From Balanoglossus misakiensis (Eukaryota; Animalia; Hemichordata): 64,000 bases of DNA. Of this stretch, positions 29,216 through 61,993 are shown piece after piece (positions within the stretch are counted from its first letter, which is position 1; each line of letters opens with the position of its first letter). A program made the translations under genes and the position numbers. The notes under the pieces were generated by a model that was not told the origin of the DNA, searched no databases, and saw nothing but the letters and a program-made list of their open reading frames with translations. The DNA is taken from assembly GCA_040954595.2 (NCBI GenBank), contig CM082586.2:7843337-7907336 (forward strand), written 5' to 3'.

Positions 29216-29564
29216 AGGGACAAAGTCTCTCTCTCGCTGCCCTTTTTCCATTAATCATGTTTGATTCAAGACACCGCTCATGTTATTCTACATGTGGATA
29301 TATAGAGAATCAACATTCAACCACACACAACTTCCATCCCGTTTGTAGGATATGGTAGTAAAAATAGCGCCAAGATGAATAAATGGTAAACACCGATTAT
29401 TCATTTTGGCGAGTTTTTCTTTCTCGTGTCTATAAGTTGGATGGAATACGTGTGCGGTTGAATGTTGATTCACTATATATCCACATGTAGAATAATATAA
29501 AAGGTGTCTTGTATCAAATATAATTCATGGAAAAAGGTCGGCGAGAGAGAGAGACTTTGTCCCT
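29216..29564. mobile_element. Kolobok-type MITE, copy 3
   Basis: Same AGGGACAAAG TIRs and TTAA TSD. Confidence 0.8.
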
Positions 29565-30053
29565 TTAATAAGTAGCCTTGGTCAATGTTTGAAAACAGAA
29601 GCTTAAGACACAAAACATGATTAATCAAAATGTTATCTGACATAAGCTTGAGAAGAGAATTTGCCAGCACCAAAGATTTACTGTCCACTTGAAATGTTTG
29701 CCTCGACAGGTAGGTTACCAGTTAAAGTCCAAATAAGTAACCTCGGTCACTGTTTCGCTCCGAAGAATTCAAAACGAAAATAACCTACCAATGACTCGAG
29801 CTACGTATATAGGTCACACTTTAGGGAAATCCCCTTTATATCAACCAATTCGCGGGTTCCGAGTTACCGAAACAGGCCACCTTGGCCGCGTGAGGGCGTA
29901 TCAATGACGTCATTATAAGTACAAAGTGCATGGTCCGATGGGACCAAAATTCAAAATGGCGGCAGTGCGTGTGTGATCGATCGTGATCACTTCTGCTTGC
30001 GACTCCTTACACCTGTTTATTTAGCATTATTTTGACAAAAACACTGCCTGAAA

Positions 30054-32273
30054 ATGGTAAATTGGTTTTGTGCGGCTCCTGACTGTACTATCAGCTTGCG
30101 CAAGAAAAGAAACGCCGCAAAATACCCAGGATTGGCAGACGTGACATTTCATGCATTCCCAACTGAGAAACATCGCCGACTTCGCCAGCAGTGGATTTCC
30201 GTGTTACGTCGGAAGGATGACTGGTCACCGAACAATTATTCCCGTGTTTGTTCGAGGCATTTTCCGGGCAATAAAGGGCCGACCAAGGAGTTTCCAGTGC
30301 CGACACTTTTTCAGTATAACAACTGGAAACAACCCGTCACAGTTCGTTCCACTGGTGTCATTGGCAAACTCTCGCAACATCGACAAGATTCAGAGCTGCA
30401 TTCAAATTCGCATGGTTTCTGTGGGGACGACGATTGTTATACACCCATCAGGGAAGTTGATATGATTGTTGACGATCTGTATGATGGTGTAGGCCTTGAT
30501 ATTCAGTTGGGATCTGAAGACACACCTTCCAGTAAGTTTGGGTTTATTAGTTTCACTTCACATGATATAATATATTGTCATTTTTGTAGGTCATATGAAA
30601 AGGAAAGAGAAATTGTTTGAAAATGAATTTAGGCACTACTGTCGTACTGATTAATTTTACAGGCACATGAATGTCATGACCGCTGTGACAAAGTGCAACT
30701 GTGTGAACAACTCAGTGTCACAGTCACTTCATTTTCAATTTAAACAGAAAGCCCCATACAAATGATATGGGGTTAGATACATACACTGCAAGGATGTATA
30801 ACATAGCTTGTACATGTAGTTGTAGCCATCAGGGGATCCATGAATTAGCACGAATATAAATAATTTAACTGCAGGTTTCTCTTTGCATTTGATTTATCTT
30901 ATATTATTTCTAAAAATTTATGAAAACGTTTTGAAATTGAGTTGTAAAAATCCTGCACTTTTGTGATCTTGTTTATTAAAGTTGTGTGTTTATTATTTAC
31001 AGAAATGTACTCGGCTGTAAAGTGTTGCGGTGTTACCAAGCCACCCAGTGATCATGACTACATCTCTATGGTTGATGACACAACAGGCAAACCAAACTTG
31101 GATGGTGTTTCAAAGACCAGAGTAATGCCCATTTCAGGGGAAACACAGAAACGACATGTTGTGCATTGTGAAGAGGAGATGGATTCTTTTGTACTACCTA
31201 AACACTGTAAAATGACTGTAACCTGTGATTGTGAAACGCAGACTGATTTGACAGGGGACCAGATCAGTAGAATGTCTGCAGCTGCAGACAGATTCAATGA
31301 CAAAGATGTACTACGTCGTGAGCTGCTTCTTGAGAAAGTGTTTGAATCGGACAAATCAGTGCAGAACTATACAGGATTTCCAAACCGTAAATCACTGGAT
31401 GGTTTCTTTGGTGTTTTAGATAAAGCTGAAACTCATTTGAAATACTGGAGTAACAGCAGCAGTTCTAAGGACAAAAAGTACCAAAGACTGGGCAAGAAAC
31501 CAGGGCCAGGACGAAAATTAACAAGATATCAGGAATATATTTTAACTTTGATTCGTTTACGTTTAGGGCTAGTGGCTTTCTTTGTAGGTGATCTGTTCGG
31601 AGTTTCGAAAACACGTGTATCTCAAATATTTACAACATGGATTTCATATATGGCAGCACTTTTTGAAAGTCTTCCTTGGCCAACTAGATCACAAATTGAT
31701 AAACACATGCCCCCATCTTTTAAGCGAGATTTTCCTAAAACTAGAACTGTTATCGATTGTACTGAATTTTTTATCGAGAAGCCCAGAACACCTAAAGCCC
31801 AAATTACAACATACAGTACCTATAAATCTCACAACACATACAAGTGTCTTGTTGGTGTTACACCTGATGGAGGATTTAATTTTATATCCAAGCTGTGGGG
31901 AGGCAATGTTTCAGATAAATTCATAACTGCAAAAAGTGGCCTTCTAGACTTAATCGAACCTGGTGACGCTGTAATGGCTGACAGGGGTTTTAACATCCAA
32001 GAAATGCTTCTTGATCGAAGGGCTAAATTAATAATCCCAGCATTTACTCGAAAGGGTCAAGGGGGAAAGGGAAAGCGTCTCAATGTTAAAGAAATCATTG
32101 CAGCTAGGAAAATTGCTCGATTGAGGATCCATGTGGAAAGGGCTATTGGGCGAATGAAAAAGTTTCGCATGCTTTCGCAAATTTTACCCTTGTCAATGAA
32201 AAATATCACAAATCAAATGGTCCAGGTTGCTGGTGGGATATGTAATTTTCTTCCCCCACTTTTGCGCAAATAG
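30054..32273 (+). CDS. Transposase, THAP + HTH + DDE_Tnp_4-type; join 30054..30531, 31003..32273
   Basis: THAP motifs CAAPDC, FHAFP, W, VCSRHF, VPTLF. One phase-1 GT-AG intron. Catalytic motifs VIDCTEF, MADRGF, RIHVERAIGRMK. No stop codons. Confidence 0.9.
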
Positions 32274-32277
32274 GTAA

Positions 32278-33270
32278 ACTCGTCACTCTACTTGTTTTAC
32301 AAGAAAAGTGACTCTCACTTTTTGTTTCACTTATGAAATTAAAGAGGTTGTGACTGTAGAGAGATCAAATACAAAATATGTTGTAAGGGAATCAAGGAAT
32401 GTTTGCATTAACCAACTAACCTACTAACCCAAACCAAGTTCCCCAATTCACTAACCAACTGACCAACTAACATACAATATTCCCTTACAACATATTTTGT
32501 ATTTCACACTTCTCTGCAGTCACACCCTCTTTAACGTCATAAGTGAAACAAAAAGTGAGAGTCATGGTACTTCTAAAACTAGTAGAGTGACGAGTGAAAC
32601 TCTTGTGAAAGCACTAAGATTTGAATAAAAAAGACACCACATGTACAGTAACAGTTTAATTTTATTGGCTGAATAAAATTCATGACATGTCTATAAATGT
32701 AACTTTAATATTCTTTGCTTTTTTATGTCTGGAGTAGACGTCAGCGAGTGTGAACGCGTATGTGTAGGGAACATGTAGCGACGCTACCCGAAACTCGCCT
32801 CACTACCAGAAACACGCTCAAGGCAAGCATGCACACAAAAAGTATTGAGATTATTTTAAAGATTAAAAAATCACTGCAAAGACACACAAAGTATTGATAT
32901 TCCAAAAATCACCAAGCGACTAGTGGGCTAGTCTAGGGTTTAAGTATAGTTAGAATGATTCACTTTTATTTTAGAAGTACCATGACTCTCACTTTTTGTT
33001 TCACTAATGACGTTAAAGAGGGTGTGACTGCAGAGAAGTGTGAAATACAAAATATGTTGTAAGGGAATATTGTATGTTAGTTGGTCAGTTGGTTAGTGAA
33101 TTGGGGAACTTGGTTTGGGTTAGTAGGTTAGTTGGTTAATGCAAACATTCCTTGATTCCCTTACAACATATTTTGTATTTGAGCTCTCTACAGTCACAAC
33201 CTCTTTAATTTCATAAGTGAAACAAAAAGTGAGAGTCACTTTTCTTGTAAAATAAAAGTAAACAATTCTA
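32278..33270. repeat. Two inverted copies of a self-complementary hairpin of about 285 bp (32278-32595 and 32951-33270)
   Basis: 32295-32578 is the near-perfect reverse complement of 32969-33252, and each copy folds on itself with arms of about 110-120 bp. Confidence 0.9.
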
Positions 33271-33310
33271 AGCTATACCCTGGTTATCCTTTTCACTATC
33301 AACAACAGTC

Positions 33311-35416
33311 CTATTTACAACTGACAACAATGTTAGGTACAATAAAATCCTCATAAAATGTAGAAAGTTTAGCTTCAGTTGTTTTCCAAAAAAATTCATC
33401 AAAATATATCCTCTCTATTGAAATGGCTTTTCTCGTGAATAGCACAAAATCACACCATTGCAGTTTACAAGTAGCAAGTTGCATTTGTATTTGGGTATAC
33501 CATTTTGATGTCCTCCTCAAACACACTTTGCCATCTACATCCGAATATACATGGTATTTGGGATCTATGCTTGATATATCACGTGGGAATATATTGCGGT
33601 GTTTGCTGGAACATTTGATTTCACAAAGGCCTGTCCCACAACATTCACATGATACCCTCCCATCAGGACTTGAACTAAGATATGGCTTGTCAGAACTGAT
33701 GACTAAGCCAACATCTTCAAATTTCACTTTCTGGTGCAACTTTTTGTATTGCTCATGATATAAATGCTTAGCAACAGGTTCATGTTTAATACCAAAATCA
33801 ATATGGGTTGAAGGTATTGTCCTGTGACTGCCAGACATGATTTTTTGGACTATGTAGTTATTCAAGTCCCGAGTTTCTCTCATGTGAAGGATATCATGTG
33901 CAATGCTGGCAGTAACTCTCCCTTGTCTATACAAATACCAATCCTCACAATCTCTTTGATCAGCTGTCAATGATGAGATAAAATCAACATCAGCTTCTGT
34001 TACACATTCTCTAATATAGCTAGTAAAATCACCATCATTGCCAGCTTTAAATGAGCTGCCCATTTGGAGAATTGTTTTGGGTTTTTGTGCCTCAGCGGAT
34101 GGAAGTGGATCAAGCATCCTCTTCCAACATGAATCATCACCGGCTATTTCAAACATTGCTTTTGCTAACTTAGTGTCAAAGAGTTTTTTTTCATCATTGT
34201 CTCGAATGGCACCTGGATAATAGTTGGACATGGTTGGTCTTGGTGTGTCAGGTTCAGACTTATCCTTCCTAATGTCAAGCTCATCTATTTCCATAGGAGT
34301 GGACTCTTTGCGGGGTTTATCCCACTTACAGGGAACATCAGTACCAACTTGAGTATTTCTGTCTTTGTGGCGTCTATCGAAGTCGTTGATGCTAAACAGC
34401 AATGCAACGCAATGTTTGCATGTTCCATGCTCACTGTAAAAAAATCAGATACATGGTAAATGTTAACTCATGATTGCAGCTTTTTTGTTTATTCATTTCT
34501 GTGACTGTCAAATGAAAAATGAGGTATTCAAACCTAAAACGTCAATGCATCAAATGGAAAATGAAATCATAGAAACTATTTTCAAATATTATCTAATTTT
34601 GCAAATCCTGATTTACAGTCCTCAACAGCACTTTTAATTGGTGAACAGATACTGTTGAAAAAACATAGACAATTCTGTCAGACTCTATTGACAGTTTTCT
34701 CATCCAAACACCCAGATACAGCACACCGAACTAAAAAACAAATGTCAAAATACATGTATAACCATTTCTATGTACCTAGTCAGACTGGTAGAACTAAAAG
34801 GCGCGGTGGATTAAAATGATAAAATTTATATTTAAAAAAATACTTACGCAACGCAATTACAGCCTCCAGAGATGATTTGGGAATTTGTCTTCATTAGAAA
34901 CCAGGTACGATAAGGTTTTTCACGTTGTGAAGTTTCGCGGACACAGTCCGCCATAACGTATATGTATTGGGTATTTGAAACCTGGTGGAGTTTCAAATCG
35001 ACGATGTGTCCATCCCGAAATAGCAGAAACCCATTATCGTTTCGATAGTCAGCAAGCCTGTCCCGTGTCCAGTCGCATTTGTCCAAAAGATATACCAAAA
35101 TATCGGCAATTTCTATTGCGGGAAGGGAATGGAGGTCGCTGACCCACTCGGCGATCGTCGCCGGATCAGGCAAAGTGAAAGTGCTTTTGGCGGGGTCGCG
35201 ATCGTCTGCGACCGTCCGCCTATTTTTACTCGAAATTTCCTGGTCACCAGGCTCTAGTGGCCGAACGTCCAGTTCTATCGCTAACTCTACTAGCTGAATC
35301 AGTCTTTCTTTCCTGGTATTACTGCAAGTTATACCGCGTTCCGATAAAAACTTTCTGAGGTCAGGAACTCGCTTGCGACGGATGTTTTCCATGACGTAAC
35401 GTAAACAAAACCCCAT
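33311..35416 (-). CDS. SAP + SWIM zinc finger + YqaJ/lambda-exonuclease domain protein; complement join 34848..35416, 33311..34433
   Basis: SAP-like VPDLRKFLSERGITCSNTRKERL. The SWIM motif GCNCVA|EHGTCKHCVALL is completed across a phase-2 intron. YqaJ motifs: W...R.GRVTAS, G..HE, SSPDG, EIKC, YTQIQMQL. Confidence 0.9.
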
Positions 35417-38638: not shown

Positions 38639-38644
38639 TATAAA
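38639..38644 (+). promoter_or_regulatory. TATA box of micro-exon gene copy 2 (equivalent at 48518-48523 for copy 3)
   Basis: TATAAA 60 bp upstream of caacATGATG in both paralogs. Confidence 0.6.
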
Positions 38645-38698: not shown

Positions 38699-41430
38699 AT
38701 GATGAAGGTATTATTGCTGACGATTATCCTCGCTTGTGTGTGTGTTGTTCAGCCATCATCTCTCCATGAAGAGCAGACAGCCAACATTGAACATCCTGGT
38801 AAGCTATCAACATATGATATTCATCAGAACTTTTGACACATCTTTTGACTATCTTTCTGTCGAATCATTTCCTGAGTTCATCTTAACGTGCAGACAAGGT
38901 TCGAGCATCCATTAAGAAGACGCATAACTCTATATCTTTCGGACTATGCACCAACGTACAGCATCTGGTGCACAAAAACTTTCCACGAGCTCGGCCATTA
39001 CACCGTGACGTGACACCAACATGTCTTGTACACTCTACACGATAAATCACACATAAAGGTGTTAGGAACTAACAAAATATCTCAATACACTGTCAACTAA
39101 CATAGACAGTATTGATGGGTACAGTCTGTGTTGCATTAAAGTCTTACACAGGTGGTGATATATATTTTGCATTATGTTTGTATCTGTTTTCCCGCTTGTA
39201 ATATAGTTTTTTATTTATTTATTTTTCAAAATAGATGCATCCGAATTAAAAGGGTATGGAAAAGATCACGTTGCAAGAACAAGTAAAGGTAAAGTGATAA
39301 TGATTGCTCTGTATTAAATTGAGATTAGTGGTTTCTTTCATTCATCACCATCAGTTATTTAAAGGTATACGGTCACCTCCAATTTACATACGTCCATATA
39401 TGTCAGAAATGCCGTATTTGTGTGTTCTTAAGAACATATGGTGGCGCTCTTTTTTCGCGTGTGCCACCCACTGAAAATCTGTGATTGGCTAGATCTCAAT
39501 TTGTCATGGTTACTATAGCTATATTTGCATAGGTGACCGTATACCTTTAATCAGTTAATATTCAAATTAATTGTAAACACCTGACTTCAACAATATAGTA
39601 AACGTTCAAGTTTTATTCGTATGACACTACACACTGTCAAACTCTTGCATACAGCCATGGTGTAAAGCGTTTCATATTTGATGACATATGCTCCCAGACT
39701 GGGCTATGGTTGTTGTAAAAAGTGGTAACAGTTCATGTTATCAACAAACTAAGAGATTTGTGTACACACCACAGTGCTGCTCGCGCACGCGTAATATGTG
39801 TTTGATAATTTGCTTGCAAAGAAAGCTACCGAAGACCGTTGCACACGAATGAAATTTGCTAAGCAAAATTCCTCTGACTTTTTGCACAGCTTATTTCTCT
39901 TGTGTGCACAGCCTTAAATTTGACATTAATGTCGTGATTTTAGTTAAATATAGACTTTTTTAGCTGATATAAACAATATTACATATATGGCAAGTTTATT
40001 ACATAACGGGGTAACATGTGGACGTCTTTGCATGCAAAATATGTGTATCTTGGTCTGTTTCTTACAAATATCCTGTTATTCTCTTTCTGTCCAGATGAGT
40101 GGAATACAGGTAAGTACACAGTTATGTATGTATGTATGTATGTATGTACCGGGGGTATGTATGTATGAATGGATGGATGGATGGATGGACGGACGGATTG
40201 ATGGATGTATGGATGGATGTATGGTTGTATGTACGTGAATGATAAATTTTCGTGATCTACACAAGAGCCAAAAAATAATCATGATAATAAATAGTCCCAA
40301 AAGAACAGTGTCTACCAAAACAATAGAATATTAATCAGAGATAAAGAGAACTGAAAATTAATCGTCCCGAAATAGTTGCCTCTGTTGATGTCCAGAAAAT
40401 TTCCTGTCATGAAAATTCCCATTTTACAATATGGATGGATGTGTGTACAAATAGTTACCTCAAATACGACAACCGCAAATACCAAAACACATGTGAAGGG
40501 ACCATACAAAAACAATTAATGATATAACATACACTAACATTGCAATGGTTATATTTAAAAAAACAGCAAGACAACATCAATCCGAAACAAATCAAATGCA
40601 GTCGACAAAACAGCTGGCCAAGTCGACCAAAATATAGCATTGCATTCACCTTGGTGTCGGACATAAATACCTCATTCTCAGTCAATACATGTGAATTGAC
40701 AATGAAACTCAACACCAGCTTATGAATCATTTGCAGCAGCAGGCCAAATAAAAAATACGTTCTGTTCCGATTACCCAACCTTCCCCAATTTTAGCCAGCC
40801 GACTCGGAACTTTTAGAGCTTCCTAATCCGGAAGTAAAAATAACCATGTCAAATATACAAAATTTATTAAAATTGCGAGAATCACGCAAGGACTATGACA
40901 CCATTCTTCTACACTACGGTGGCCAAGTATTTTTAAAAAATTGCAAAATAAAAAGTCCCCACCTACCTATCCTATTTTTAAAAAACATGCAATCGGAACA
41001 GCACCCATTTTTTTTATTTGGCCTCAGCAGAAAGTGAAGTGGCATTAATTCTTGTTGTATTTATCTTTTTCTCACCAGATTGGGGTGGTAAGTATTGAAA
41101 GGCTTTTCCATGATGGACGGATAGATACATGAATGGATGGTTGGGTGGATGGATGGATGGATGGATGCACGGAGTAAAACAATATCAATACATTTGCATG
41201 TCCCCACAGAGAATGTGGATGTCTGGGCAGGCGAAATATACATTTCTTGGTCTATTATTTATAAATGTTATTATGCTCTTTGTTTCCAGATGAGTGGAAC
41301 AAAGGTAAGTCTTATTCTGCACAGTTATGTTTGTATGTACCGTAGTTATGTATGTATGTACCGTAGTTATGTATGTATGTATGTATGTATGTATGTATGT
41401 ATGTATGTATGTATGTACATTGTATGTATG

Positions 41431-41464
<34 letters not shown>

Positions 41465-42174
41465 GGTAAAGTTAATCATTCACCTCAATCACAATTTCTC
41501 TGAAGAGCTGATGATTATGTTTATCAAAATACACCAATGACGTCGTAAACATGATATAATTGACTCAAAGTGATATTTGTGAAGTACATATGTGTATAAT
41601 TTTATGAAAATGCACACACAGATGGATTATTTTGGCATCCTATTACAATATAGGCACATACATTTCAATAATGTATTTGTTGCGGTATATAAAGAATACC
41701 CTTGTCATTTCTTGTTCAGTTTGAACGGCGTACCTTGTTCTGGGCACTAACCACTTATACAGAAATTACACTGTCCATTTTGGAGACACTCTACACAATT
41801 GACGTAATCTATATAAAACAAGATATATGGTTATTTTGCAGTATCATTTAAGAAACTGAAATGCCCATAAATTCTGCTAAACATTTGTCAACATACATCT
41901 GCAACAAAAATTAACCACAAAACACTGAAAAGGGTGAGGAGCATCGGACTTTTTCGTAGTGTTTTGGCGAATTGTCCAATACATGCAGCTTGGTGGGGGT
42001 CCAAGATAGTTGGAAGAGCCAAGCTAATGAAATGATGATCATGTTTTATTTTGTTGTCAAATGTAAAGTACTATCAGTTAGCACGTATTGAAATGAACAC
42101 TAGCTTACATTTGCATGCGCAGAAATTCTTATTTTGTCACGTTCTTCTCTTTCTTTCCAGTTTTTTGGTTATAA
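38699..42174 (+). CDS. Micro-exon secreted peptide precursor, copy 2 (68 aa); join 38699..38798, 39235..39288, 40095..40109, 41079..41087, 41290..41304, 42161..42174; terminal exon from 42801
   Basis: [68 protein letters not shown]. Every exon has a YAG acceptor and a GT donor. Internal exons are 54, 15, 9 and 15 nt, all phase 1. Confidence 0.8.
39363..39546. mobile_element. Short Kolobok-type MITE (AGGTATACGGTCACCT TIR, TTAA TSD); duplicated at about 49241-49402
   Basis: ttaa|aggtatacggtcacct ... aggtgaccgtatacct|ttaa. Confidence 0.75.
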
Positions 42175-43092
42175 GGTTTGTATTACTCTACTCAAACTTT
42201 CCTAATTTTCGAACATCTTATTGTTATTGTTTGGCTTGTTAAGACATAATCGTAATTAGTCAACTGTGAAGCGTAAGTTAAGCTCCATAGATAGCAGATA
42301 TGTACAATGTCATTAGATGGTCAATAATATATATGAGATGCTGAAGCAAGAAAACTCAATCGCTGATTGTACAAACTCTTAAAGGTAACATGTCACAGCG
42401 CAGGTATCTCATGATACTTTCTTAATTACCTTAGCAACGGTTTGCTGGCCAATCAGAACAAGCGAAACTATATAAAACCATAATACTGGTAGATGTAGAG
42501 TTTAACGGAAATTGTAATTTTGCGCCTTATCACATGTGCTGGTTGTCCTGTGCCACATGAGAATGTCCATCTAAAATGCCTTGACATGTCATATCTTGCA
42601 AGGTCTCGGGGAGTTTGGAATATGGTCTACTAGGATTTGACGTTAGTAAAAAAATGTTGGTGTGTGTGTGACAAATACCAATAATTTGTCACATCAATGT
42701 TATGTCAATTTTCAATTTCAATACTGGGTAACTCAGAAGCATTATAGCATTGTATTTTTTCAGCGAACATATTTTGAGTGTAAACCTTGATTTCTTTCAG
42801 GCGAATTGCTACATATGGGACTGAGTTTGAATAAAGGACACCGGTGACAGCAACAAGCACAATGGCATTAATGAAATGGAGTCAAATTACTCGTGTATTC
42901 TATCTAGCTCTGCTAGTATCATTCAAACGAGTCATGTATCAGTTTCATTGTTGATTAAGAATTCTAGGCTACTGTATACATTTTAGTGTTTTCTTTTAGC
43001 ATTTGTGTAATCATCCTTTTTGTGTTGAAACTAATCAAGTAATAAACAGGTAATGCATCATCAATATTGTTTATTCAGTCTATATTTAAATA

Positions 43093-47378: not shown

Positions 47379-48577
47379 TTACTGTGGTTGGCAATTGTGG
47401 ACGTGTACAGCAAATTGAGCCATCGGCTTAGGGTGATTTTTACTTCATGCGCATGACCACCGATGCATTCAGGCGAAGGCTGATCAATTTTTTCCTCGCA
47501 GGTGACATCGACTATGTACCATGGATAGCACCCATAGACGAAAATAAATCAAGGTTGAATTTCAAACACATTAACCATACACACACACAAAAATACAGTA
47601 CACTGGGCATTTAGAGACGACGTAATTTCAGTGTATGATTGAGGTATGATGACTGGAAAGGTATGGAACAGAATGCCCCAAATTCACATCCCTTAAAGGT
47701 ATATGGTCATCATTTCCTAACTGTTACACTGGAAAATACAAATATAGCCAATCACAAATGCCCAATGGCACCCGCGATAAAACATGGTCATTTGGACACT
47801 AGGTCACGCGATTTTGACCATAAAAAGGCATGTGTGTATTAGAGGTGACCGTATATCTTTAACTGCTCAGTCACTAATGTGGAAGGACGGACGGACGGAA
47901 GGACGAATGAACGAATGTATGAATGAATGTAGCCTTTACACGTTGACATATGGGACATGCTTTCACTCAATGAAAGGAACTATAAAACGTGGCAGCCATA
48001 TGTTCTCCCAAGCAGAGAGTGAATACAAAGAGTGGGATGTCGCCCACCATTCCAAAGCATTGTTTCATGTCTGACTTAATATTTTATCCTGTGCCACGTT
48101 ATCGAAACTCCACTCTATCACTATTGTTCACAAAGCGGGGGCATAACATGGATATGAATATCCATGCATAACGCTTGTCCTACACCCACGGTGGTCTTTG
48201 ATATCACTTTGTAACATAAAGCCAGACTCAATCGTTACGATAACGGCCACAATTCAACTGGTGAAGATTTATCCCAAATTATTAGTCCCATAGAATGATA
48301 TTTATTCACAGAATTTTGACACAGCATGGAAAGAATATCACATATATTGTCAATACAAGTATTATGGTGACTTCACTTGTGTGTGGTGCCCACATAATTA
48401 ATTACCCCAACAAACAAAAGGTGAAATATTAAGTCATGCTGTCATACGCAAGTATCTCAGTGGGCGATGATCTCTCATCCGATCACATACCTCTCAATCA
48501 GATGAAGAAAGGACATCTATAAATTGCGACCACCTGTAGATGTTCACTAGAATCCTACACCGAGATAATCAACCAAC

Positions 48578-51500
48578 ATGATGAAGGTATTATTGCTGTC
48601 GATTATCCTCGCTTGTGTGTGTGTTGTTTGGCCATCATCTCTCCCTGAAGAGAAGACAGTCTTCAGTGAACATCCTGGTAAGCTATCAACATATGATATT
48701 CATCAGAACTTCTGACACATCTTTTGACTATCTTTCTGTCGAATCATTTCCTGAGTTCATCTTAACGTGCAGACGAGGTTCGAGCATCCATTAAGAAGAC
48801 GCATAACTCTATATCTTTCGGACTATGCACCAACGTACAGCATCTGGTGCACAAAAACTTTCCACGAGCTCGGCCATTACACCGTGACGTGACACCAACA
48901 TGCCTTGTACACTCTACACGATAAATCACACATAAAGGTGTTAGGAACTAACAAAATATCTCAATACACTGTCAACTAACATGGACAGTATTGATGGGTA
49001 CAGTCTGTGTTGCATTAAAGTCTTACACAGGTGGTGATATATATTTTGCATTATGTTTGTATCTGTTTTCCTGCTTGTAATATAGTTTTTATTTATTTAT
49101 TTTTCAAAATAGATGCATCCGAATTAAAAGGGTATGGAAAAGATCACGTTGCAAGAACAAGTAAAGGTAAATTGATAATAATTGCTCTGTATTAAATTGA
49201 GATTAGTGGTTTCTTTCATTCATCAGCATCAGTTATTTAAAGGTATACGGTCACCTCCAATTTACATACGTCCATATATGTCAGAAATGCCGTATTTGTG
49301 TGTTCTTAAGAACATATGGTGGCGCTCTTTTTTCGCGTGATTGGCTAGATCTCAATTTGTCATGGTTACTATAGCTATATTTGCATAGGTGACCGTATAC
49401 ATTTAATCAGGGGATGAAAACTCAAATGAGTATTCAATCCGATCCCGGACAAGCCCCCAATTTGTTACAACCCGCAGGCCGTCCGAGCCAAAAATATGCG
49501 GAGAATAGAGAGGTCAATTTACCTGACCGGGTGGCTTGTTTTACACCCGAACCGACCAACAGGCCGCAGCAAAAGAAATGGTCAAAGACAGCACACGTAC
49601 AACAAACCAGTCTATCTACAGTGTTAATTTAATTACAGATACGAGTAAATTTCACAAATATGTTAACTAATATTTACAATAAAGTACAAACTAAACTAAC
49701 GAGCGTGACCAGGTAAACAAACAAAAAATCCCTACCACGTTCAAAGTCTCACCAACAGTTCGGCGTCTCGACGCACGACGATACTGGCGTTTCACTCAAC
49801 GCACAGCAATTCTGGCCTTTCTGTCCGTTTTACGCCGGGGTACAAAAAAGACAGCCACGTATAACCTCAAACTGCATATCCACCGTGTAGTCCACAGACA
49901 GCCACGTATTACCTCCAATGCAGTTCCAAAGTGACACGGAGACGCGCTCCCTCAGGACGGCTCCCAAATCCCACGCGGCGTTCTCGAAAACCTCCACCAC
50001 GACTTCACAAGTCCCTTCGACAGTGTCAATCCTCAGCTACCACAGTAGACAGGCACACTCCGTACAGTGGGCTCCCAAAACTCCGCGACAATGCGACGGC
50101 ACAGCTACCAGACCAGAATCAAAATGAGCCACACGACAACGTGGCACTGGGGTGTCTTTTATACGACCGAAACTAACACCTGGTCACGTTAATATGTTAA
50201 ATAAAGAAATTAACATAGGTGCACCTGGCCACGAAACAAAACAAAAAAGAAACTTCATCACATAGGATTCTGAAACTCTTGCATTCAGCCATGGTGTAAA
50301 GCGTTTCATATTTGATGACATATGCTCCCAGACTGGGCTATGGTTGTTATAAAAAGTGGTAACAGTTCATGTTATCAACAAACTAAGAGATTTGTGTACA
50401 CAACCACAGCGCTGCTCGCGCACGCGTAATACTAATAGTTACCAGATGAAGTTTCATGGAGGTCGCGGTCATGTCACATCTGCCTATTTATTAATTTATG
50501 GAGAGTCTCAGTTGGCTGCTTACAAGTGACCCGGCTGGGCTGTACTAAATATCGGCAGACACCCTAATTATCATAGATTATCAATTATTTGCACAGACAA
50601 TGACATATAATGTTCTACTTTTTTCTTTTCAGGCCAATGGGGTTGTGAGTATGGCATTCTTTTCATTTTGAAAGCATGGAGTGTGTGTGTGTGTGTATGT
50701 CTGTCTATCTGTACATGTATGTAGGTGTGTGTATGTTGATTTGTATGTGCCTCTACAAAGAGACAACCAATTGTATGCACAAAATCGGTGAAGATCTAAG
50801 ACGCAAATTATAACATGCAATAACAATATAATGTATATGAAAAGGGAGATCTTTCCTTTTGAACGCCAAAGTCAAGATAAGAACTTTATTTTCGGTCAAA
50901 TTTAAAATCGCACCTACATGTATCAATAAATATACACACTGACAGTAACACTAATTTCTACAGATTATAAATTAATTGAATCATCAGAAACTAGCAATAA
51001 TAATTGTTGTCATGATCTTCTCTTTTCACTTTGCATTGTTTGCATATTAGAAAGTCGCCTGTATGTATGTATGTTTATGTATACACATACATGTACATCT
51101 CTGATCACGAGGAGTATAGTAGGTATAGGCAAAACCAGTCATATGATTACAAAAGTATCTGTTTATTGGTCTTGACGAAAAGGAAACAAGGGTTTCAATC
51201 TCATCTTGTACATCCTTTCATCGGGTGACAACCGAATCATCCAGTTTTTAACCCGCAGCAGTTGCATACATGTAGATGTTTTTTTAACAAATATCACCCT
51301 CCAAACTTCAGGATATGTTTTAGAGTCCCATAATCAAGCCATAATACCATTGAAAATGGCAATGGGTCTGCTTGACAAAAATCCCATTCATACACAGATA
51401 TTTTACAACTGTTACAACTGCTTTTTTAATGCGTTGTTCAGTTTTATTCCTTTTCTCTCAGTGGAAGATGTTATCCATATGTCAGAGAACATGCAGCGAC

Positions 51501-53382
51501 CACGCTGGACTGGCTGTCAGATGGAATAACCCTACTTACTAATTAGTGATAATGGTTTATTTAGATGGAAAATTTATAACTTTTACTGTCACTTAATACT
51601 TAAAGGCACGTAAGCTGCAACTGGATAAAAAATCAATGTTTTAAATAATCTCATATATGCTTTTAATTATATCTATTAAATGCTATTTCATGATAATATA
51701 TCAAGCTCAACACTTATTTATGACAAAATGGCCAAAAATTAAAGAAAAACGAAAATTCCTGAAATTTTTAAAAAAGTGCAATATTGCAATGAAAAATGAC
51801 AATCTGATGTCTCAGTGGTGTACATTTACTTCCATGAGCTCAAGTGGATGAGATCATGTTTTGTTTATGAAGTTTCACAACCGGAAATGCGACATTTTCA
51901 TTGTTTCTTTCATTTTCCCACGGTGGCGGCCATAATCGCTTGCGGCAAAGCTTTATTATTTATCTGGTTAAAACTTGCATATGCACTCATATTTAGGGTT
52001 TATAATGCTTGTGTATAGTTCACTGCCTTCATCTGCATGGACTTATGGTAGTGCAGTGTGAAACAAAAATTATGAAAATTATCCCAAAAGTTACAGCTTA
52101 CGTGCCTTTAAAGGGACAAAGTCTCTCTCTCGCTGCCCTTTTTCCATTAATTATGTTTGATACAAGACACTATTAATGTTATTCTACATGTAGATATATA
52201 GTGAATCAATGTTCGACCACACAAAACTTCCATCCCACTTGTATGAAATGAGAGTAAAAACTCGCCCAAAATGAATAAATGGTAAAGAATGATTATTCAT
52301 TTTGGCGAGTTTTTTCACTCTCCTGTCTATAAGAGGGATGGAAGTTGTGTGTGGTTGAACATTCATTCACTATATATCTATATGTAGAATAACAAATTGT
52401 GTCTTGTATCAAATATAATTAATGGAAAAAAGGGCAGCGAGAGAGAGACTTTGTCCCTTTAATACAGGAACAACCAAATTAAACATTGTCAAACATTTCA
52501 AGAAGCGGAAACTTGTATTAAAATGTTTCTTGTGCTCTTTCTCTACAGATCCGTGGAATGACAGTAAGTAACACTATGCACAAATTGCACAAATATTAAA
52601 ATTTCTATGTACTGGTGCTTGTGTGTGTGGGTATGTATGTATGTATGTATGTATGTATGTATACATGCATGTATGTAAATTACCTAGGGAGGTTGAAGTT
52701 TTGATGGATAGTTTTCTTGTTGGCACTGATTTATCAGTTGATTGATTTGCTTACTCATTATCATATTTATTGCCTATTTATTTACTATTTTTATGAATTT
52801 GATCATTTTTATGAGGACCCTGATGTAAATTAAAATTTGTTTCTTGTGATCAGGTTACCCTCTTTCAATGAAGTATGACAATAATGATTGAGGTTTCATC
52901 AAAGAGACTACCCTTATTTGGAAAGCTTTGCTCAATGTCATTCACCTCTTCATTGCTAAAAGCAATGTACACATCAATAATATATGACACATTTGCTGGA
53001 CTATGCTGTCAGATAGAGAGCCAAGTAGACCAAGCACAATTTAAGGGAAAAATTTCACTCCCTCATGGCCAATCAATATGTATTGTCCTCGTGCAGAAAC
53101 TTATATTAAAATGTTTCTTCTGCTCTTCCTTTACAGACCCTGCACGGGAAGGTGAGTTTTACTCTTATGAAACAAGTATGTATGTATGTATGTATGTATG
53201 TATGTATGTATGTATGTATGTATGTATGTATGTATGTATGTATGTACCGGTATGTATGTATGTATGCATGTATGTATGTCAAGAAGGGTAGTAGCTACTA
53301 CCCTTCTTTATACTCCGCTCTACTCTTGTATTAAGCACTTTGGATTGGACCAGTTGAATCGCATACTTCGTATGTATGTATG

Positions 53383-53413
<31 letters not shown>

Positions 53414-56400
53414 CGTTTGCATGCTTAAACTTTATGTTAGTTACCTATCATATTGTCTTCTTGATCTAATCACAGGAAAGAGAGAAGATTTGTCAAAGCG
53501 TTGTAAGTAATACGTTTTTTTTTATTTGGACAGACAGACACATACATACATACATACATACATACATACATACATGTGTCTCTTGGTCTACAAAACAGTG
53601 GAATTGATATCATAATACACATATACATGCACACAAATGATTATAAACCACTTTAAAGCACCAACACATAAGTCATCGCTGACATTGCACAGGATGAAAT
53701 GTCAGCGATTGTCTGCATTGAGACAATGTACCGGTCAGTATACAGCGACCGATGCAGGACCGGTTGTACAAACTAGCCAATCAATAACGATAGCTTAAAG
53801 TGTTAATCCTTCATTATAAGTCGAAACATATTGAGACGATCAACCAAATTGAACTGATCATGAATGTCATCCAAAGGCAGAGACTTGTGTTAATCGTTTG
53901 GTCTGCTCTTTCTATACAGATCCCTGGGGGGAAGGTATGTATGTATAATATCTACAACTGGACTCACTCATGAGAAGACAGGCTGGGTTACATGCATATA
54001 TACAGGTGGTGGATTGTTTGATGGTTGGTAGTTTTGCTTAACATGGTGATATGAATGTGCAGGGAGATGAGTGGGGAGATACTGCCTATTGTTTCTCCAG
54101 CTGCCCTTACTTTATATTCAGCTCAGCTTTATTATCGAGTACTTTGTATTGGACTAGTCAAACCACATATTGTATGTACCATATGTATGTATACCTTATT
54201 ATCGCCCACTATGAACATCAAACTTCAAGACATTATTCAACTGTTTCTTTTCACCACCTATGTAACTTATAACAGATTGAATAAACCGCATTGCCATTAT
54301 TTTAGATTATAAATGCAACAAGTTTTAATGATCTGTCGATCGCTGTATCTTTCATGTAAAAATCACAATTACTGGTACCTGAGTACAGTGCGTAGTACAG
54401 AGATGACATGAAAATGTTATGGTTCCATGACTTTCGCCTTATCGCTTACCAAAATCAACAGTAGAAAAACTTGGGAAATATGACAGCAGAAACAATGTGT
54501 CACAAATGTGTTAGAGAATTGACAAGCACATGCAGTATATGAGTTTGGTTAAAAAATTGCATATTGTTCCTTCTAGCTTTGACTAGCTTTGGTTTTCAAA
54601 ATCAAAACGGTGCCGTTTCATTTGCATGTTTTGAAATATTTTGTCCCACCTCTTCTAACAATAAATATGAAGACTGTTCATATGATAAACACAGAATGCA
54701 TTCAATATTTTTCTGTGTACTGGTATACTCATAGAAAGCAGTCATGTAAACGAAGATATCAAATACAGAAATATCATTGGATATGTCATATTGGCTATGC
54801 AATTATCAATCATTTTAACGAGCAGAAACTTGTATAAACAAATGCTTCTTTTCTTCTTTTCCTTTTCTACAGACATGTATTATCGTAAGTAGACCAAGCA
54901 CAATTTAAGGGAAAAATTTCACTCCCTCATGGCCAATCAATATGTATTGTCCTCGTGCAGAAACTTATATTAAAATGTTTCTTCTGCTCTTCCTTTACAG
55001 ACCCTGCACGGGAAGGTGAGTTTTACTCTTATGAAACAAGTATGTATGTATGTATGTATGTATGTATGTATGTATGTACCGGTATGTATGTATGTATGCA
55101 TGTATGTATGTCAAGAAGGGTAGTAGCTACTACCCTTCTTTATACTCCGCTCTACTCTTGTTAGAGAATTGACAAGCACATGCAGTATATGAGTTTGGTT
55201 AAAAAATTGCATATTGTTCCTTCTAGCTTTGACTAGCTTTGGTTTTCAAAATCAAAACGGTGCCGTTTCATTTGCATGTTTTGAAATATTTTGTCCCACC
55301 TCTTTTAACAATAAATATGAAGACTGTTCATATGATAAACACAGAATGCATTCAATATTTTTCTGTGTACTGGTATACTCATAGAAAGCAGTCATGTAAA
55401 CGAAGATATCAAATACAGAAACATCATTGGATATGTCATATTGGTTATGTAATTATCAATCATTTAACGAGCAGAAACTTGTATAAACAAATGCTTCTTT
55501 TCTTCTTTTCCTTTTCTACAGACATGTGGGGTTATCGTAAGTATTACATGGCGCAAAAAGTCGTATGTATGTATGTATGTATGTATGTATGTATGTATGT
55601 ATGTATGTATTCAGCAAGTCTGTTAATCAATAACAACACATTCTGTTTATACCGCATGCACTTGTATTGAAAATGTTCTATTCTGTCCTTCCTTCCAGAA
55701 CCATGGGCTTTAGGTAAGTACATGTATTATTGTGTTTTAACACTTTATATTAAATTTTGAAAGTCTGGTGTATGACCCAAATATAACCATAGCTGTGTAT
55801 TGTATAAGAGCAAAATTTCCCTCTATAAACACCAATTCACAAAAAAATGTTGAACAAATCAAACATTGGTTTAAAGTGGCATAACGTAACTCTTGCATTA
55901 AATATACATCCCTCACTATTAGTACATAATGATAGTAACAACAAGATTGTCAATCGATCGCAACAACAGAAACTTATTATTATTTATTTATGTATGTATA
56001 AATGCATGTGTGTTTGTACGCGGGCAAATTTCTTTTTATTATTTTATGTGTCATTATTGCATGTATTACCTACTCTGTTCCAATCACAGGAAAGAAAAGA
56101 GTTGATTCATCCAAACGTGGTAAGCAATGAAAAATTAATGTTAGATATTATTTGTTAAGCAAGGCATTTTATGTGAAATCTGCAAAGATCACTACTTAAG
56201 GGATGGCACAAAATTGTGATACATTATTTACTCGCAATTTGCAATAATAACTTTAACATTCTCTGTTGCCTTATTAGAGCGAAAATAAATGGGTGATAAT
56301 AAAACTTATTTTGTGTTGTGGTCTTCTCTATTGATTATGTTTCTGATTCTAGCATTATTCATTAAAATAGATGGGGTTGAAGCAACAATGCATGGATATG

Positions 56401-58164
56401 AACGAGAAGCAGGAGAAACACAAGGTAAGGTGATCAAAACCCATTGACCTGTATATTGAAGATGAGTACTTTTAGTATCATAACTTCGTTCGACTATAGT
56501 TTCATTCAATAGCACTTTTTTAGTATGTGTTATTTACATGGTTAAATTTGAAAATGTTTCCATTATACAGAAAGGAAACATCATAATTCAATACTCTGTT
56601 CTAATCACAGGAAAGAAGAGAGTTGATGCATCCAAACCTGGTAAGTAATGAAAAAGTAATGTTAGATATTATTCGTTGAGCAAAGCATTTTCTTATTATG
56701 TGCACTTTGTATATTTTAAAAATAACAAGTTATTGAGGTGTCATCTTCGTCTTAACAATTTGCAATGGATTTTTGAAAATAGCAAAAGGTATGATCACAA
56801 ATTTGTGTCTCACCCCAATATGATGAAATACAGATTTTTGAGACATCATTGGGAATGTTTCATTTACTTATCTAAATATGAGATGTTGTGATTTTATTCG
56901 TGTATGCATGGATGCATTTTTATGCATCTTTGTATGTGGGCAAACATTATTTATTACTTTGTGTGTTATTGTTTCATGCATTACCTACTTTGTTCTAATC
57001 AAAGGAAAGAAGAGAGTAGATTCTTCCAAACGTGGTACATGTAATTAATGAAAAGTAATGTTAGACATTATTCGTTGAGCAAGGCATTTTTATGCAAAAT
57101 CTGCAAAGGTCACTAATTAGGGAATGTACCGGCAATTTGCAATGATAACTTTAACACTCTCTGTTGCCTTATTAGAGCGATAATAAATTAGTGATAATAA
57201 AACTCATTTTGTGTTGTGGTCTTCTCTATTGATTATGTTTCTGATTCTAGCATTTTTTCATTAAAATAGACGACGTCAAAGCCACCATGCGTGAATATGA
57301 ACGAGAAGCAGGAAAAACACGAGGTATGGTGATCAATGCAATTACATTATGTTCATATCTTTACAGGATCACACTAAAATACAAGTTGACCTTGATCACA
57401 ATGTGCGCCTTTTTTTCTGCTGTCTATCTAAAATGTCCAGAAATGCACTTTGCCTAAATTGTATTTACCAATTCTGGTTGTCAGAGCTTAAACTTTGCAA
57501 CTTCCATTGTGTTCATGGTAAAAAAAACTGGCAACTTTTTGTGAATTGCAATTTCAACTATGTATGCGTTATATGACCAATCTATAACCATGATTTTGTT
57601 AGCCCAAAATGTAAATCACTCACTATTGGTCTATAAAATTGAAAGTTCCTCCAACTACAACAGAATGTCAATAATATGCACAATCAGAAACATGTACTTA
57701 GAAATGTAATGTTCTGTTCTTTCTCTCTAGATGAGCCTTGTAAGTATTACTCTGCATTTTATGTATGTATGTATGTATGTATGTATGTATGCATGCATGT
57801 ATGCATGTATGTATGTATGTATGTATGTATGTATGTATGTATGTATGTTGTGCGTATGTAGGTATGTATTCATGTATGTTATGTGTGTAGGCATGTATCC
57901 ACCTGTATGTGTTATGTTGGACAAATTGTACGCACAAGCAATTCAAATGCAATCCACAACATACCATGCTTCAATAAAGGCGTGAGATATAAACCCCTAA
58001 ATATTATCCAATACATATTGACAGTAACACATACCAAACATCATATAATAAATCATTAAATAAGCATAAATGTGCATTAACACTTTTCATTATTTTCTCC
58101 TCTCCAGATTGGAATGGTAAGTATTGGGAGCTGTTCCATTTGTAATGTATTGTTCTATATATAA

Positions 58165-58195
<31 letters not shown>

Positions 58196-59084
58196 TGTAT
58201 GTATGTATGTATGAAGGGGTGTATGTATGTACAATGTAAAATAATACACTTATCACTCATGAAAATAATATCCGAACTGCACAGATCGCGCGCACAGGTC
58301 ATGAAGTTCTGTCATATTGGTATACATGTCCCCACAAATAATGTGGATGTCTTTGCAGGCGAAGTATCATGTATCTTGGTCTATACTTGTAAACATTATG
58401 ATTTGCTCTTTCTTTCCAGGTTTTTGGGATGATTGTAAGTATTACAATGTGTTTATATTGCCTGAAGACCTAAAAGTTAAGTTAACCAAAATACATAAAT
58501 GCCGTCGTAAATATGACGTTGTTCTGCAATTCCCTCAAAATGTTCGCTGTGATGTACATAAGAGCTTGGCAATTTTGTGAGAATGCACACACACACATGT
58601 ACTATTGCAAAATTGACACATTTTAGTCACATTTCAGGATACTTGTTTTATAAGGTATATAAGGACAATTTCAATCATGGGGGAATTTCCTTTGGTTAGA
58701 TGGGCACATCCTGCTCTGGACACTACCCACTAAAACAGAATATACATCATCATAAATAATATTTCCATAATTGACAGCCTCTACATAATCGATGCAGATC
58801 TGGTCTTCCGCAATATCATTTAACTAACAAAAATGTCCCTAAACATTTGACAATAGCCACGAAATACTGAATTAGCTAGGTGGAGATCATCATTGTACAG
58901 TATTTGATAGAGTTTTGGCCAAGTGTGCGATAGTTACATAAGGGTGGGAGTCCAAGATTATTTGAAGATCCAACCTTTCCAATTGATGATCATGCTGTGT
59001 TTTGTCGTCAAATGTATGTTCTTTCACTATAAGTATGTATCCTGTTGTTTTTTCTCTTTCTTTACAGATTTGTGGATTTTTTAA
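48578..59084 (+). CDS. Micro-exon secreted multi-peptide precursor, copy 3 (180 aa if all 20 exons are used); exons 48578..48677, 49113..49166, 50633..50644, 52549..52563, 53137..53151, 53476..53502, 53920..53934, 54873..54884, 55001..55015, 55522..55536, 55699..55713, 56090..56119, 56371..56424, 56611..56640, 57005..57034 (weak sites), 57270..57323, 57731..57739, 58108..58116, 58420..58434, 59068..59084; terminal exon from 60750
   Basis: The spliced frame is open: [180 protein letters not shown]. All 18 internal exons are multiples of 3 and phase 1, with AG/GT ends. Confidence 0.8.
49410..50261. mobile_element. Insertion of about 850 bp, possibly a solo LTR
   Basis: GC-richer block absent from the paralogous intron of copy 2. 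Its ends are gggatgaa.. and ..ttcatcaca, a degenerate TG..CA with a short inverted repeat. No clear TSD. Confidence 0.4.
51604..52107. mobile_element. Kolobok-type MITE (AGGCACGTAAGCTG TIR, TTAA TSD)
   Basis: ttaa|aggcacgtaagctgcaact ... agttacagcttacgtgcct|ttaa; a partial relative lies at about 60050-60490. Confidence 0.75.
52112..52458. mobile_element. Kolobok-type MITE (AGGGACAAAG family), copy 4
   Basis: TTAA at 52108-52111 (shared with the preceding MITE) and at 52459-52462. Confidence 0.8.
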
Positions 59085-61993
59085 CGGTGTGTATTACCTT
59101 TTTAAGTTTTCTTAATTTCGAAAATCCTTTATTGTTTGGCTTATTGTGATAATTAGTCAACTATGGAACATAAGGTCCATAGGTAGCATATATACATCGT
59201 CATTTGATAATCAAGTTTAATATAAGAATACTTAAGCAAGAAAAGTCAGCAATAAGTCTTACAAAGTTAGGATGATATGTCACAACGCACTAACTTTGTG
59301 CTCATATCTTTCCTCGATCACACTTAATCTAAATTATATTATTTCATTCTACCATCCCCCATTCTGATTGGACGCGAGCTCAATCCAGCGATGCCAAAAT
59401 ACTCATATAGCACTGCTAAAGCGGGGCCCTGAACTAGCATGCAGCAGCAAAAAATGTGCCGTTAAACCAGTCGTGTGGGATTAAACCAAATAAAAAAAAT
59501 AAAAATACTGTTGAATTAACGGATGTTTTATTTTTGAACTGCTCTGTGGGAATATAGGTCACTTTGCCATGCGCGTGCCTGTCTTGTCACTTTTTTTTTC
59601 GTCTGCTTCATGTTTAATGCTCCATCCCGGGCGCTCGTGTTTACATTCATCGTTGCCATGTTGGTTCGCGTTACGGTAACTCCTATTTCTGACGCTGTTT
59701 CGTAAAGAAAATGCCACTGATATGCCACAAAATCAATTGTTGATTTAATATAATAGCAATACTCGATTTGGTTACAATTCGCTCCATATAGCACTCGCCT
59801 ATGTCTCGAATTGTACCCAAATCTTGTGTATACCCGCCTGCGGGTTATTGCTTAAATATAAGTTGAACTTGACCACAATGTGCTGCTATTAGCACAAATA
59901 AACACTAGCTTTCTTCTGCTGTCTACCTAAAATGTCCACAAATGCCCGAGATCTCGCGAGACTTGGTTAATTACTGTAGCAACGGTTCGCTAGCCAATTA
60001 GAATAAGCGAAACCATATGAAACCATAATAGATTTAAAGTTTAAAGTCACATAAGCTGCAACTTTTGGGATAATTATCATTTTTATATGTATTACCATTA
60101 GCCCATGCAGATGTAGTCACTGAACTATAGACAAGTATTGTAACCCCCCAAAAAGTGCATATACAAGTTTTAACCAGATAAATAGTAAAGCTTTGCAACA
60201 AAGGAATATGTAGGAAAATGCAAGAAACAATGAAAACACTACATGGCATTTCATAAAAAAATCATGGTCTCATCCACTAGAACTCATGGAAGTAAATGTA
60301 CTCTGCTGAGACATTGCATTCTCATATTTCCATTCCAATATTGCACTTTCAAAAAAAATTGCAGGAATTTTTGATTTTCTTTATTTTTTTTGCCATTTTG
60401 TCATAAATAAGTGTTTATCTTAATTAAGAGCATATATGGGTTTCATTTAAAGCTTAATTTTTTTTTATCCAGTCGCAGCTCATGTGCTTTTAACATTTGC
60501 GCCTTAACACGCGATCGGCCATATACTGCTTGTCCAGTGCTGCATGAGAATTTCAACTTATAAACTGTCTTCACGTGATACCTCACGGAGTTCAGAATAT
60601 GGTCGAGTAGCATTTGACTTCAGTAAAAAATGTTGATGTGTGTGTCATGAATAGAAATCAATTATCTCATCAATGGACACTCAATAGCATTATAACTTTC
60701 TATTTTTTTCGCCTAACAAATTTTAAATGTAAACTTTGACTTCTTTCAGGACAACTGTTATATCTGGGAACAAGTTTAAGACTGAATAAAGGACACCAGC
60801 GACTGCAGCAAGCATAATGGCATTTGATTAAATGGAGTCATATTACTTATGTATTCTATCTAGTTCTGTTACTGTATGATTCATAATTATATAGTCATGT
60901 ATCAATTACACAGTTGATTTAGAGTATCAAGGCTAGCATATAAGTATTTAGGGTTTCTTTAGCATTTGAGTAATGATCCTTTTTATGTCGAAACTTATAA
61001 AGTAATAAAAAGGTAATGCATCATCAATATTGTTTATTCAGTCTATATTAAGTAACAGCTATTTCGCATATTTAACCAATTTATACACTGTACAATGTAC
61101 ATGTATTTCCAATTTTGGGCAACCAATAGGGTCAAGGCGAAGTTGCTTTACAAACATGCACCAATATTGAACTTGAATGTGTTGCAAAATGTCTAGACGT
61201 CTGTGTCGCTCTATGAAAATACATTAAGCTAAACAAATATGCTATGATTCAAAATACTTTGACAATATATACAACTAATCTGCCCTCCACTATTATAGCC
61301 AAATGTACATGTACCGCTCGTAGCTCTTTCTGTATTGCCCTATATATCTATAAATCTCTTACTTTACTTCAACCAATTCCAACAATTTATAGCTATTTTG
61401 AGTTTTAAAATTTTATTTTTGGAAACACGTTCACTCACACAATCTGTCATCATTGCTGCTTGCTTTGCAGACATCTACGAATGGTTTGAATTAGCTTCCT
61501 TTTAAATGGTGACAAAACATACATTGTAGATTTCAGTTAACATACTGAATCTGTAGGAAATATTGCAGATTATATTATATCATGCTACCGTCCGCAATTC
61601 TGATTGGACGAGAGCTCAATCCAGCGAGGCTAAAATACTCAATACACTGCTAAAACGGGCCCCTGAACTAGCATACGGCAGCAAAATTGTGCGGTTAAAC
61701 CACAGTCGCGCGTGTTTAAACCAAATAAATAAAACAAAAATACTGTTGAATTAACGGACGTTTTATTTTGAAACTGCTCTGTGGAAATATTTGTCACTTT
61801 GCCACGCGCGATGCCTGTCTTGTCACTTTTTGTCGTCTGCTTCATGTTTAATGCTTGATTGTCGATATAATATAATAGCAATAACCCCCGCCTCAGTCTG
61901 GTATACACTCGATTTGGGTACAATTCGCTCCATATAGCACTCGCCTGACGGCTCGTGCTATATGTCTCAAATTGTACCCAAATCTCGCGTATA

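Follow-up and report, generated by a model that had tools for sequence, protein, structure and literature searches.

How does an animal genome come to encode a peptide precursor in exons of only a few codons each, and does the variety of the peptides arise by splicing or in the DNA itself? This question is raised by a stretch of 64,000 nucleotides (nt) from the hemichordate Balanoglossus misakiensis (assembly GCA_040954595.2, contig CM082586.2, positions 7,843,337 to 7,907,336 of the forward strand), referred to here as the window, to which all coordinates below apply. Towards its end lies gene B, a chain of micro-exons on the + strand. Our results indicate that gene B belongs to a three-copy tandem family, best explained by repeated duplication of frame-preserving micro-exons and predicted to encode a secreted precursor. 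We regard the peptide family as real and fast-evolving, and as likely secreted.

Gene B consists of a signal-type exon 1 and 18 internal exons, all of a length divisible by three (3n) and in phase 1, which join into one open frame of 180 residues, exactly where a first-pass annotation of this DNA had placed them. A TATA box (48518-48523, with a counterpart in gene A at 38639) precedes the start ATG at 48578, and a 19-nt stop exon followed by a terminal exon with polyadenylation signals closes the model; both kinds of signal recur at corresponding positions in the paralogues. Of the 540 coding nt, exons no longer than 30 nt supply about half (283 nt, exon 20 counted whole), and those of up to 54 nt about four-fifths (445 nt, counted in the same way). 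The coding part of exon 1 (48578-48677, phase-1 donor) specifies a signal-type N-terminus at residues about 1-17 and a hypervariable segment at residues 18-33. Hydropathy, by which the signal peptide was judged, reaches 2.1-3.6 in the N-terminal windows of the precursor, which is polar afterwards; a signal-peptide-bearing, secreted precursor is therefore likely.

The internal exons fall into three classes. Eleven are core exons of 9-15 nt: exons 3 (50633-50644, 12 nt, QWG), 4 (52549-52563, 15 nt, PWND), 5 (53137-53151, 15 nt, PARE, without Trp), 7 (53920-53934, 15 nt, PWGE), 8 (54873-54884, 12 nt, MYY), 9 (55001-55015, 15 nt), 10 (55522-55536, 15 nt, MWGY), 11 (55699-55713, 15 nt, PWAL), 17 (57731-57739, 9 nt, EP), 18 (58108-58116, 9 nt, WN) and 19 (58420-58434, 15 nt, FWDD). 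Trp or Tyr is present in eight of them; the exon encoding LWIF, which had been counted with them, is exon 20 (59068-59086), which has 19 nt, carries the stop and stands outside the 18. Four are processing exons of 27-30 nt, namely exons 6 (53476-53502, 27 nt, KR...KR), 12 (56090-56119, 30 nt, KKR...KR), 14 (56611-56640) and 15 (57005-57034). In exon 14 the second KR is lost. The remaining three have 54 nt: exon 2 (49113-49166, ending in Lys, with the same sequence in gene A), exon 13 (56371-56424) and exon 16 (57270-57323, ending in KTR). They had been taken for spacers, a view that fails for exon 13, since KR and GKKR flank it and make it a predicted amidated acidic 18-mer. The terminal exon (60750-61010) has AATAAA at 60785 and 61004 and contains a short Trp-bearing frame.

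A chance origin of this exon pattern is excluded by strand and shuffle controls. A fixed splice rule, not trained on these exons, was run on both strands, inside and outside the three loci of the family, which together occupy 19.4-19.6 kb of the window, the remaining 44.6 kb counting as outside. On the + strand it made 17 calls inside the loci, all of 3n length, and five outside, one of them 3n; on the - strand it made no call inside and three outside, none of them 3n. Across the span of gene B the rule gave 10 calls, compared with a mean of 0.39 (maximum 3) in 300 shuffles. All 17 calls are stop-free in phase 1 and contain 12 Trp, while phases 0 and 2 leave 14 and nine of them stop-free with one Trp each. 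The nominal p-value overstates the case, because the locus borders were set once a first scan had been made and the exons share descent, the copies being paralogous and hence not independent; two of the calls also share a donor. The rule is strict and retrieves only 10 of the 18 internal exons of gene B. A matrix trained on the exon model detected no additional pair of strong acceptor and donor in gene B, and the acceptors and donors of the core exons are near consensus; the weakest donor is that of exon 15 (3.3, versus 7.9-14.3 elsewhere), which also has an AAG acceptor.

Self-comparison of the window revealed two further copies, both on the + strand: a complete gene A (38.7-43.0 kb) and a 5'-truncated copy C (23.8-26.1 kb). 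The first-pass annotation described gene B and overlooked that it belongs to a tandem family reshuffled in DNA. Gene A (38699-43045; exons 38699-38798, 39235-39288, 40095-40109, 41079-41087, 41290-41304, 42161-42175, which holds the stop, and 42801-43045) has its promoter, exon 1 and exon 2 in common with B, and continues with three Trp cores and the stop exon; four Trp cores are counted in the gene as a whole. Its product has 68 residues, and it possesses no processing exon. Copy C (23815-26140; exons 23815-23844, 24660-24713, 24870-24911, 25237-25251 and terminal 25884-26140) lacks a signal exon, has a processing exon fused to a core (24870-24911) and another processing exon broken by a deletion (25653), and has lost some dibasic sites. 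The search for a signal exon upstream of C returned three weak calls, two of them read from microsatellite and none with a TATA box. From these sequence features, C is probably decaying.

The closeness of A and B invites the objection that the locus is a non-functional relic or an assembly artefact, in which two haplotypes, A and B, were set one after the other. Their non-coding sequences are about 98.5% identical over about 1.2 kb, within a near-identical segment of 1.5 kb; some internal blocks are 98-100% identical, and copy C is decayed in appearance. However, outside the near-identical segment the identity of A and B falls to 72-81% and their exon strings are different, so that they are paralogues with recent conversion and not two haplotypes. 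Gene B preserves its frame, splice sites and dibasic motifs. In the stretch 48300-49060, 30 of 30 bins are covered by DNA contigs of run X1; run X3 (share 0.02), possibly RNA, gave 0 contigs there, which carries no information on expression. An artefact or relic is thus very improbable.

A short C-Y-I-W frame is kept, with several silent changes, in the terminal exons of B, A and C (60750-60780, 42801-42830 and 25884-25915), and stops just before AATAAA in all three, being in frame only in C. In A and B it would need phase-0 entry, and their own frames stop one exon earlier. Were the T-run of B exon 20 longer by one T, this frame would be continuous with the precursor; a homopolymer polymorphism or error is conceivable.

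Exon reshuffling at the DNA level is shown by the blocks from which gene B is composed. Upstream intron sequence is common to the core exons, and likewise shared among the processing and the 54-nt exons; by this sequence likeness, the core exons share descent together with their intron flanks. The block of exon 9 is identical to that of exon 5 at 154 of 154 nt. The exon-8 and exon-10 blocks are separated by seven events. Two of them struck exon 8 itself, which lost 3 nt in frame and underwent a single substitution, and five fall in about 370 nt of flanks. Exons 8-9-10 thus record a recent event, in which the exon-10 and exon-5 blocks were copied with short microhomologies at both ends; microsatellites were considered as the breakpoints and rejected, given these ends. 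Exons 12-13 and 15-16 represent an older duplicate. Core exon lengths vary only in steps of three, among 9, 12 and 15 nt, and this, together with the uniform phase, shows selection on the reading frame. The uniform phase-1 symmetry itself arises because all exons copy one symmetric exon-plus-intron module. Exon symmetry had been read as a sign of skipping; since module duplication explains it, it is no evidence of skipping.

Arrays of (TATG)n were also observed in these introns. All 19 arrays of at least four units in the window fall in the three loci (23625-58213), 18 of them in sense orientation, and 17 sit 14-220 nt downstream of a micro-exon. They may have been inherited with the module or may act as splicing enhancers, GUAUGU being donor-like.

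Could gene B nevertheless be a splice-combinatorial library, in which a single gene yields numerous precursors by skipping core and processing exons, like the micro-exon genes (MEGs) of schistosomes? The reading frame would allow it, given that 238,848 of the 262,144 subsets of internal exons (91%) read open to the stop exon, and only nine of 190 ordered exon pairs create a stop at their junction. Exons of 9-15 nt are prone to skipping, and exon 15 combines weak splice sites with an intact frame. The design is used by schistosome MEGs (PMC4350168) and has been proposed for sponge PRMP genes (PMC10945851). On the other hand, symmetry already follows from duplication, the near-consensus splice sites of the core exons are just as compatible with constitutive inclusion, processing exons are absent from paralogue A, and the tandem-exon peptide genes of Xenopus are said to gain little diversity by splicing (PMC3731216). 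A library of this kind is possible, but we do not favour it.

The further proposal was that cores and cleavage sites are reshuffled independently. Every junction codon is split, however, so the modules are not fully independent. Before a processing exon, an exon ending in G would yield Gly, and with it an amide; one ending in A or C would yield Arg, giving cleavage and no amide, and one ending in T a stop. Twelve of the 19 exons end in G. The design of the gene, as read from its sequence, thus tolerates skipping, which would vary the peptide ends. A more elaborate version would have cassettes of 3-5 residues with a single Trp, and cassettes for cleavage and amidation, as independent exons. Skipping would determine which sequence the peptides of a possibly halogenated library have and, via the split codon, whether they finish in an amide, a free acid or an early stop, and the library would have arisen independently of schistosome MEGs. 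This version is tentative, and a little less probable than the library as such. In our preferred explanation, peptide variety would come mainly from genomic exon gain, loss and point change, with some skipping of 9-15 nt exons as a plausible second layer.

Substitution patterns bear on this explanation. The processing exons are under purifying selection, as estimated from their sequences (proportion of synonymous differences, pS, 0.27; of non-synonymous differences, pN, 0.11; 10 non-independent pairs), and exons 12 and 15 are separated by three synonymous differences and no non-synonymous one. Between A and B, the signal part of exon 1 differs at one of 51 nt and exon 2 at none of 54. Residues 18-33 differ at eight of 49 nt, all non-synonymous, versus 17 of 1170 in the non-coding flanks (Fisher p=2.5e-6), an 11-fold excess of this post-signal segment over the flanking introns. 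Two additional exon-1 variants occur in DNA contigs of one sample, raising to three the residues represented at codons 18 and 29. Such a pattern suggests that the post-signal segment is under diversifying selection.

Lys-Arg (KR) is a prohormone convertase site, and G-K-R signals C-terminal amidation. Gene B has four G-K-R or G-K-K-R junctions and three further KR sites. If the precursor is divided at (G)(K)KR, the predicted products are a 46-mer that reaches from the N-terminus to exon 5 and has its last 14 residues after the Lys of exon 2, a 24-mer (exons 7-11), the 18-mer of exon 13, a 6-mer, three linkers of four residues, and a 34-mer at the C-terminus, within which a monobasic site may follow exon 16. 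Four predicted ends (exons 5, 11, 13 and 14) carry an amidation signal and have no motif in common. The predicted products have a net charge of 0 to -4 and are devoid of Cys. The first-pass proposal of a translated, secreted, Trp-rich precursor processed at KR and GKR is likely correct, considering the hydropathy, the purifying selection on the processing exons, and the expression of PC2 and PAM in the acorn worm Saccoglossus (PMC10508912).

The same traits would suit a neuropeptide or endocrine precursor specific to this lineage, with an SRRM/eMIC programme directing the inclusion of its micro-exons. A predicted signal peptide, dibasic KR and GKR sites and amidation signals are all present, and UGC, which marks targets of SRRM3/4 (bioRxiv 2024.09.17.613571), stands at -16 in six of 17 short exons. 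Nevertheless, UGC is found there in 32 of 162 background cases, and the six represent one inherited site; the AG-free zone measures 41 nt versus a background of 36 nt (p=0.055). The four amide ends differ and have no motif of a known family in common, and turnover this rapid is unusual for neuropeptides. We regard a neuropeptide role as unlikely. To a similar degree we doubt that the products are pheromones or gamete-recognition peptides, such as a spawning cue or sperm-activating peptide. The predicted water-soluble acidic peptides, the fast divergence at the species level and the precursor for several peptides would fit such a role, to which the sperm-activating peptides of echinoderms offer an analogy, but the peptides of gene B are heterogeneous and not near-identical repeats.

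In another alternative, gene B would encode an animal ribosomally made, post-translationally modified peptide (RiPP) precursor, with processing exons as recognition sequences and Trp/Tyr cores that are halogenated, sulfated or cross-linked. Conserved flanks, variable aromatic cores and simple-repeat introns recall sponge PRMP genes (PMC10945851), multi-core fungal precursors cut by Kex2 are cyclised via Tyr (PMC9233826), and acorn worms make bromophenols, according to a reference title in PMC4280546. Against this, no tailoring enzyme was found among the 14 open reading frames (ORFs) scanned in the window, the cores do not end in Pro, and the GKR amidation signals fit an ordinary secretory route. 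A RiPP precursor seems still less probable than a neuropeptide or a pheromone.

We hold with moderate confidence that the family serves an outward-facing secretion, either mucus defence or a chemical signal, under diversifying selection and diversified mainly in the genome. This reading is preferred because of the rapid turnover, the tandem copies, the heterogeneous products and the strongly secretory epidermis of acorn worms (PMC13554239). As the sequence shows, three modules (Trp core, processing site and 54-nt peptide) were duplicated along with the introns beside them and put into new orders, leaving A, B and C with different exon strings. The gene would be transcribed, all its exons spliced in and the precursor secreted; a convertase would cleave at KR and KKR, perhaps also where exons 2 and 16 end in basic residues, and PAM would amidate four products, whose ends lie at exons 5, 11, 13 and 14, the C-terminal Trp peptide being released as a free acid. 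The products would be short acidic peptides rich in Trp and Tyr.

Several observations weigh against this reading. The 54-nt exon pairs are mixed, with pN below pS in two of six and above it in four. The absence of synonymous changes among the nine that separate exon 1 of A and B is not significant alone, read variants of exon 1 include three synonymous changes, and the excess in exon 1 could derive from a short gene-conversion tract of another copy. A G before all four processing exons is likewise not significant (P=0.13). As for defence, the predicted gene B products show neither the positive charge nor the disulfide frame of cationic or Cys-stabilised defence peptides, and acidic, Cys-free sequences of this kind, with net charges of -2 to -4 for the peptides, argue against a classical membrane-lytic peptide. 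With products unlike the typical cationic or disulfide peptides, evolutionary rate and analogy would be the only arguments for a defence role.

The remainder of the window contains genes and mobile elements of other kinds. A multi-exon gene at 0.3-9.3 kb (+ strand) has an exon for which only three of 173 candidates were matches, all of them uncharacterised proteins with a GTPase domain, from Ptychodera flava (69%) and Glandiceps talaboti (56%); this likeness points to an enteropneust hemichordate as the host. It encodes an MMR_HSR1-type GTPase with a weak Crinkler N-terminal match, and it may be IFI44-like. A gene at 13298-14156 (- strand) has at least two PAN/apple-domain exons; a second copy of its 3' flank lies at 22737-23358, immediately upstream of copy C. 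An apparently intact retroelement (15580-20723, - strand), presumably of DIRS type, comprises a long gag-like ORF, reverse transcriptase, tyrosine recombinase and split terminal repeats. The DNA transposon at 30036-35416, which we assume to be ISL2EU/Harbinger-like, encodes THAP and DDE_Tnp_4 on the + strand and a YqaJ exonuclease on the - strand, with a 287-nt inverted repeat of 99% identity between the + and - genes (32292-33255). A palindromic element of about 360 nt, resembling a miniature inverted-repeat transposable element, has four copies (6559-6904, 7634-7991, 29210-29570 and 52106-52464), the last inside intron 3 of gene B, and a second family occurs at 23500, 37401, 59332 and 61569.

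The family had not been recognised in the first pass, and single-exon and Pfam searches gave no match either. Exon 1 with 12 read-through codons had no homologue among three candidates, exon 1 had no match among 1.84 billion representatives, and the three 54-nt exons with flanks had none among 97 candidates; Pfam returned nothing for either exon-1 copy, and the Atlas search no usable match. These outside searches took single exons as queries and are hence weak, so that an orthologue in P. flava or Glandiceps is possible. Pattern searches of metagenomes gave zero hits in one case and, in another, two chance matches without similarity beyond the pattern. No relevant paper in the open-licence literature was found for six peptide motifs, and the open-licence work searched on hemichordate micro-exons and peptide precursors contained nothing on this family; its novelty may be affected by supplementary lists of hemichordate neuropeptides. 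Likenesses of three to five residues to YPW opioid peptides, plant QPW cores, cholecystokinin and cyanobactin recognition sites were given no weight.

If convergent, a MEG-type case in a hemichordate, combined with the processing of prohormones, would show that motif-sized exons can serve as the units of secreted peptide repertoires, and that such families escape ORF-based annotation. The window catches exon shuffling in progress. It also offers a concrete, synthesisable set of peptides for an animal group without a described secreted peptide family in the open-licence literature searched.

Among known systems, schistosome MEGs resemble gene B in their signal peptide, in a coding sequence that lies mainly in minute symmetric exons (for the most part of 15 nt), in their tandem clusters and in their fast evolution (PMC4350168; PMC10526429). 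They are described as appearing restricted to platyhelminths (PMC4350168), whereas the host of gene B is a deuterostome; the word 'convertase' is absent from the MEG review (PMC10526429), whereas gene B has dedicated KR/GKR exons. Skipping has been shown for MEGs and is a possibility in gene B; exon-level searches found no sequence similarity to MEG families. Gene B is thus MEG-like in its working, but not a MEG by descent.

The nearest analogue among peptide precursors is the sponge PRMP family, with a signal peptide, conserved recognition sequences, hypervariable cores, simple-repeat introns, tandem duplication and proposed splicing diversity (PMC10945851), a report that lowers the novelty of the general idea. 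There, one intron-bounded unit holds both recognition sequence and core, and the cores end in Pro and are cyclised (PMC10945851). In gene B, cores and cleavage sites sit on separate exons, as many as five micro-exons would contribute to one peptide, and there are amidation signals. Its processing exon is conserved but flanks only some cores, and the only predicted product that ends in Pro is followed by an amidation signal. The cluster of antimicrobial and hormone-like skin peptides in pipid frogs shares tandem secreted precursors, KR/RR processing, duplicated peptide exons and 5'-less pseudogenes (PMC3731216), and bee apidaecin genes carry one apidaecin per exon (PMC3415428). In both, each exon makes up most of a peptide, whereas the module of gene B has 3-5 residues around one Trp and its products are acidic. 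The dikaritins and epichloecyclins, fungal peptides released by Kex2, share a secretory multi-core precursor, dibasic cleavage and aromatic cores (PMC9233826); gene B differs in its micro-exon build, its animal host and the lack of a clustered tailoring enzyme in the window. What sets gene B apart is the placement of cores and cleavage sites on different exons, together with the size of the module.

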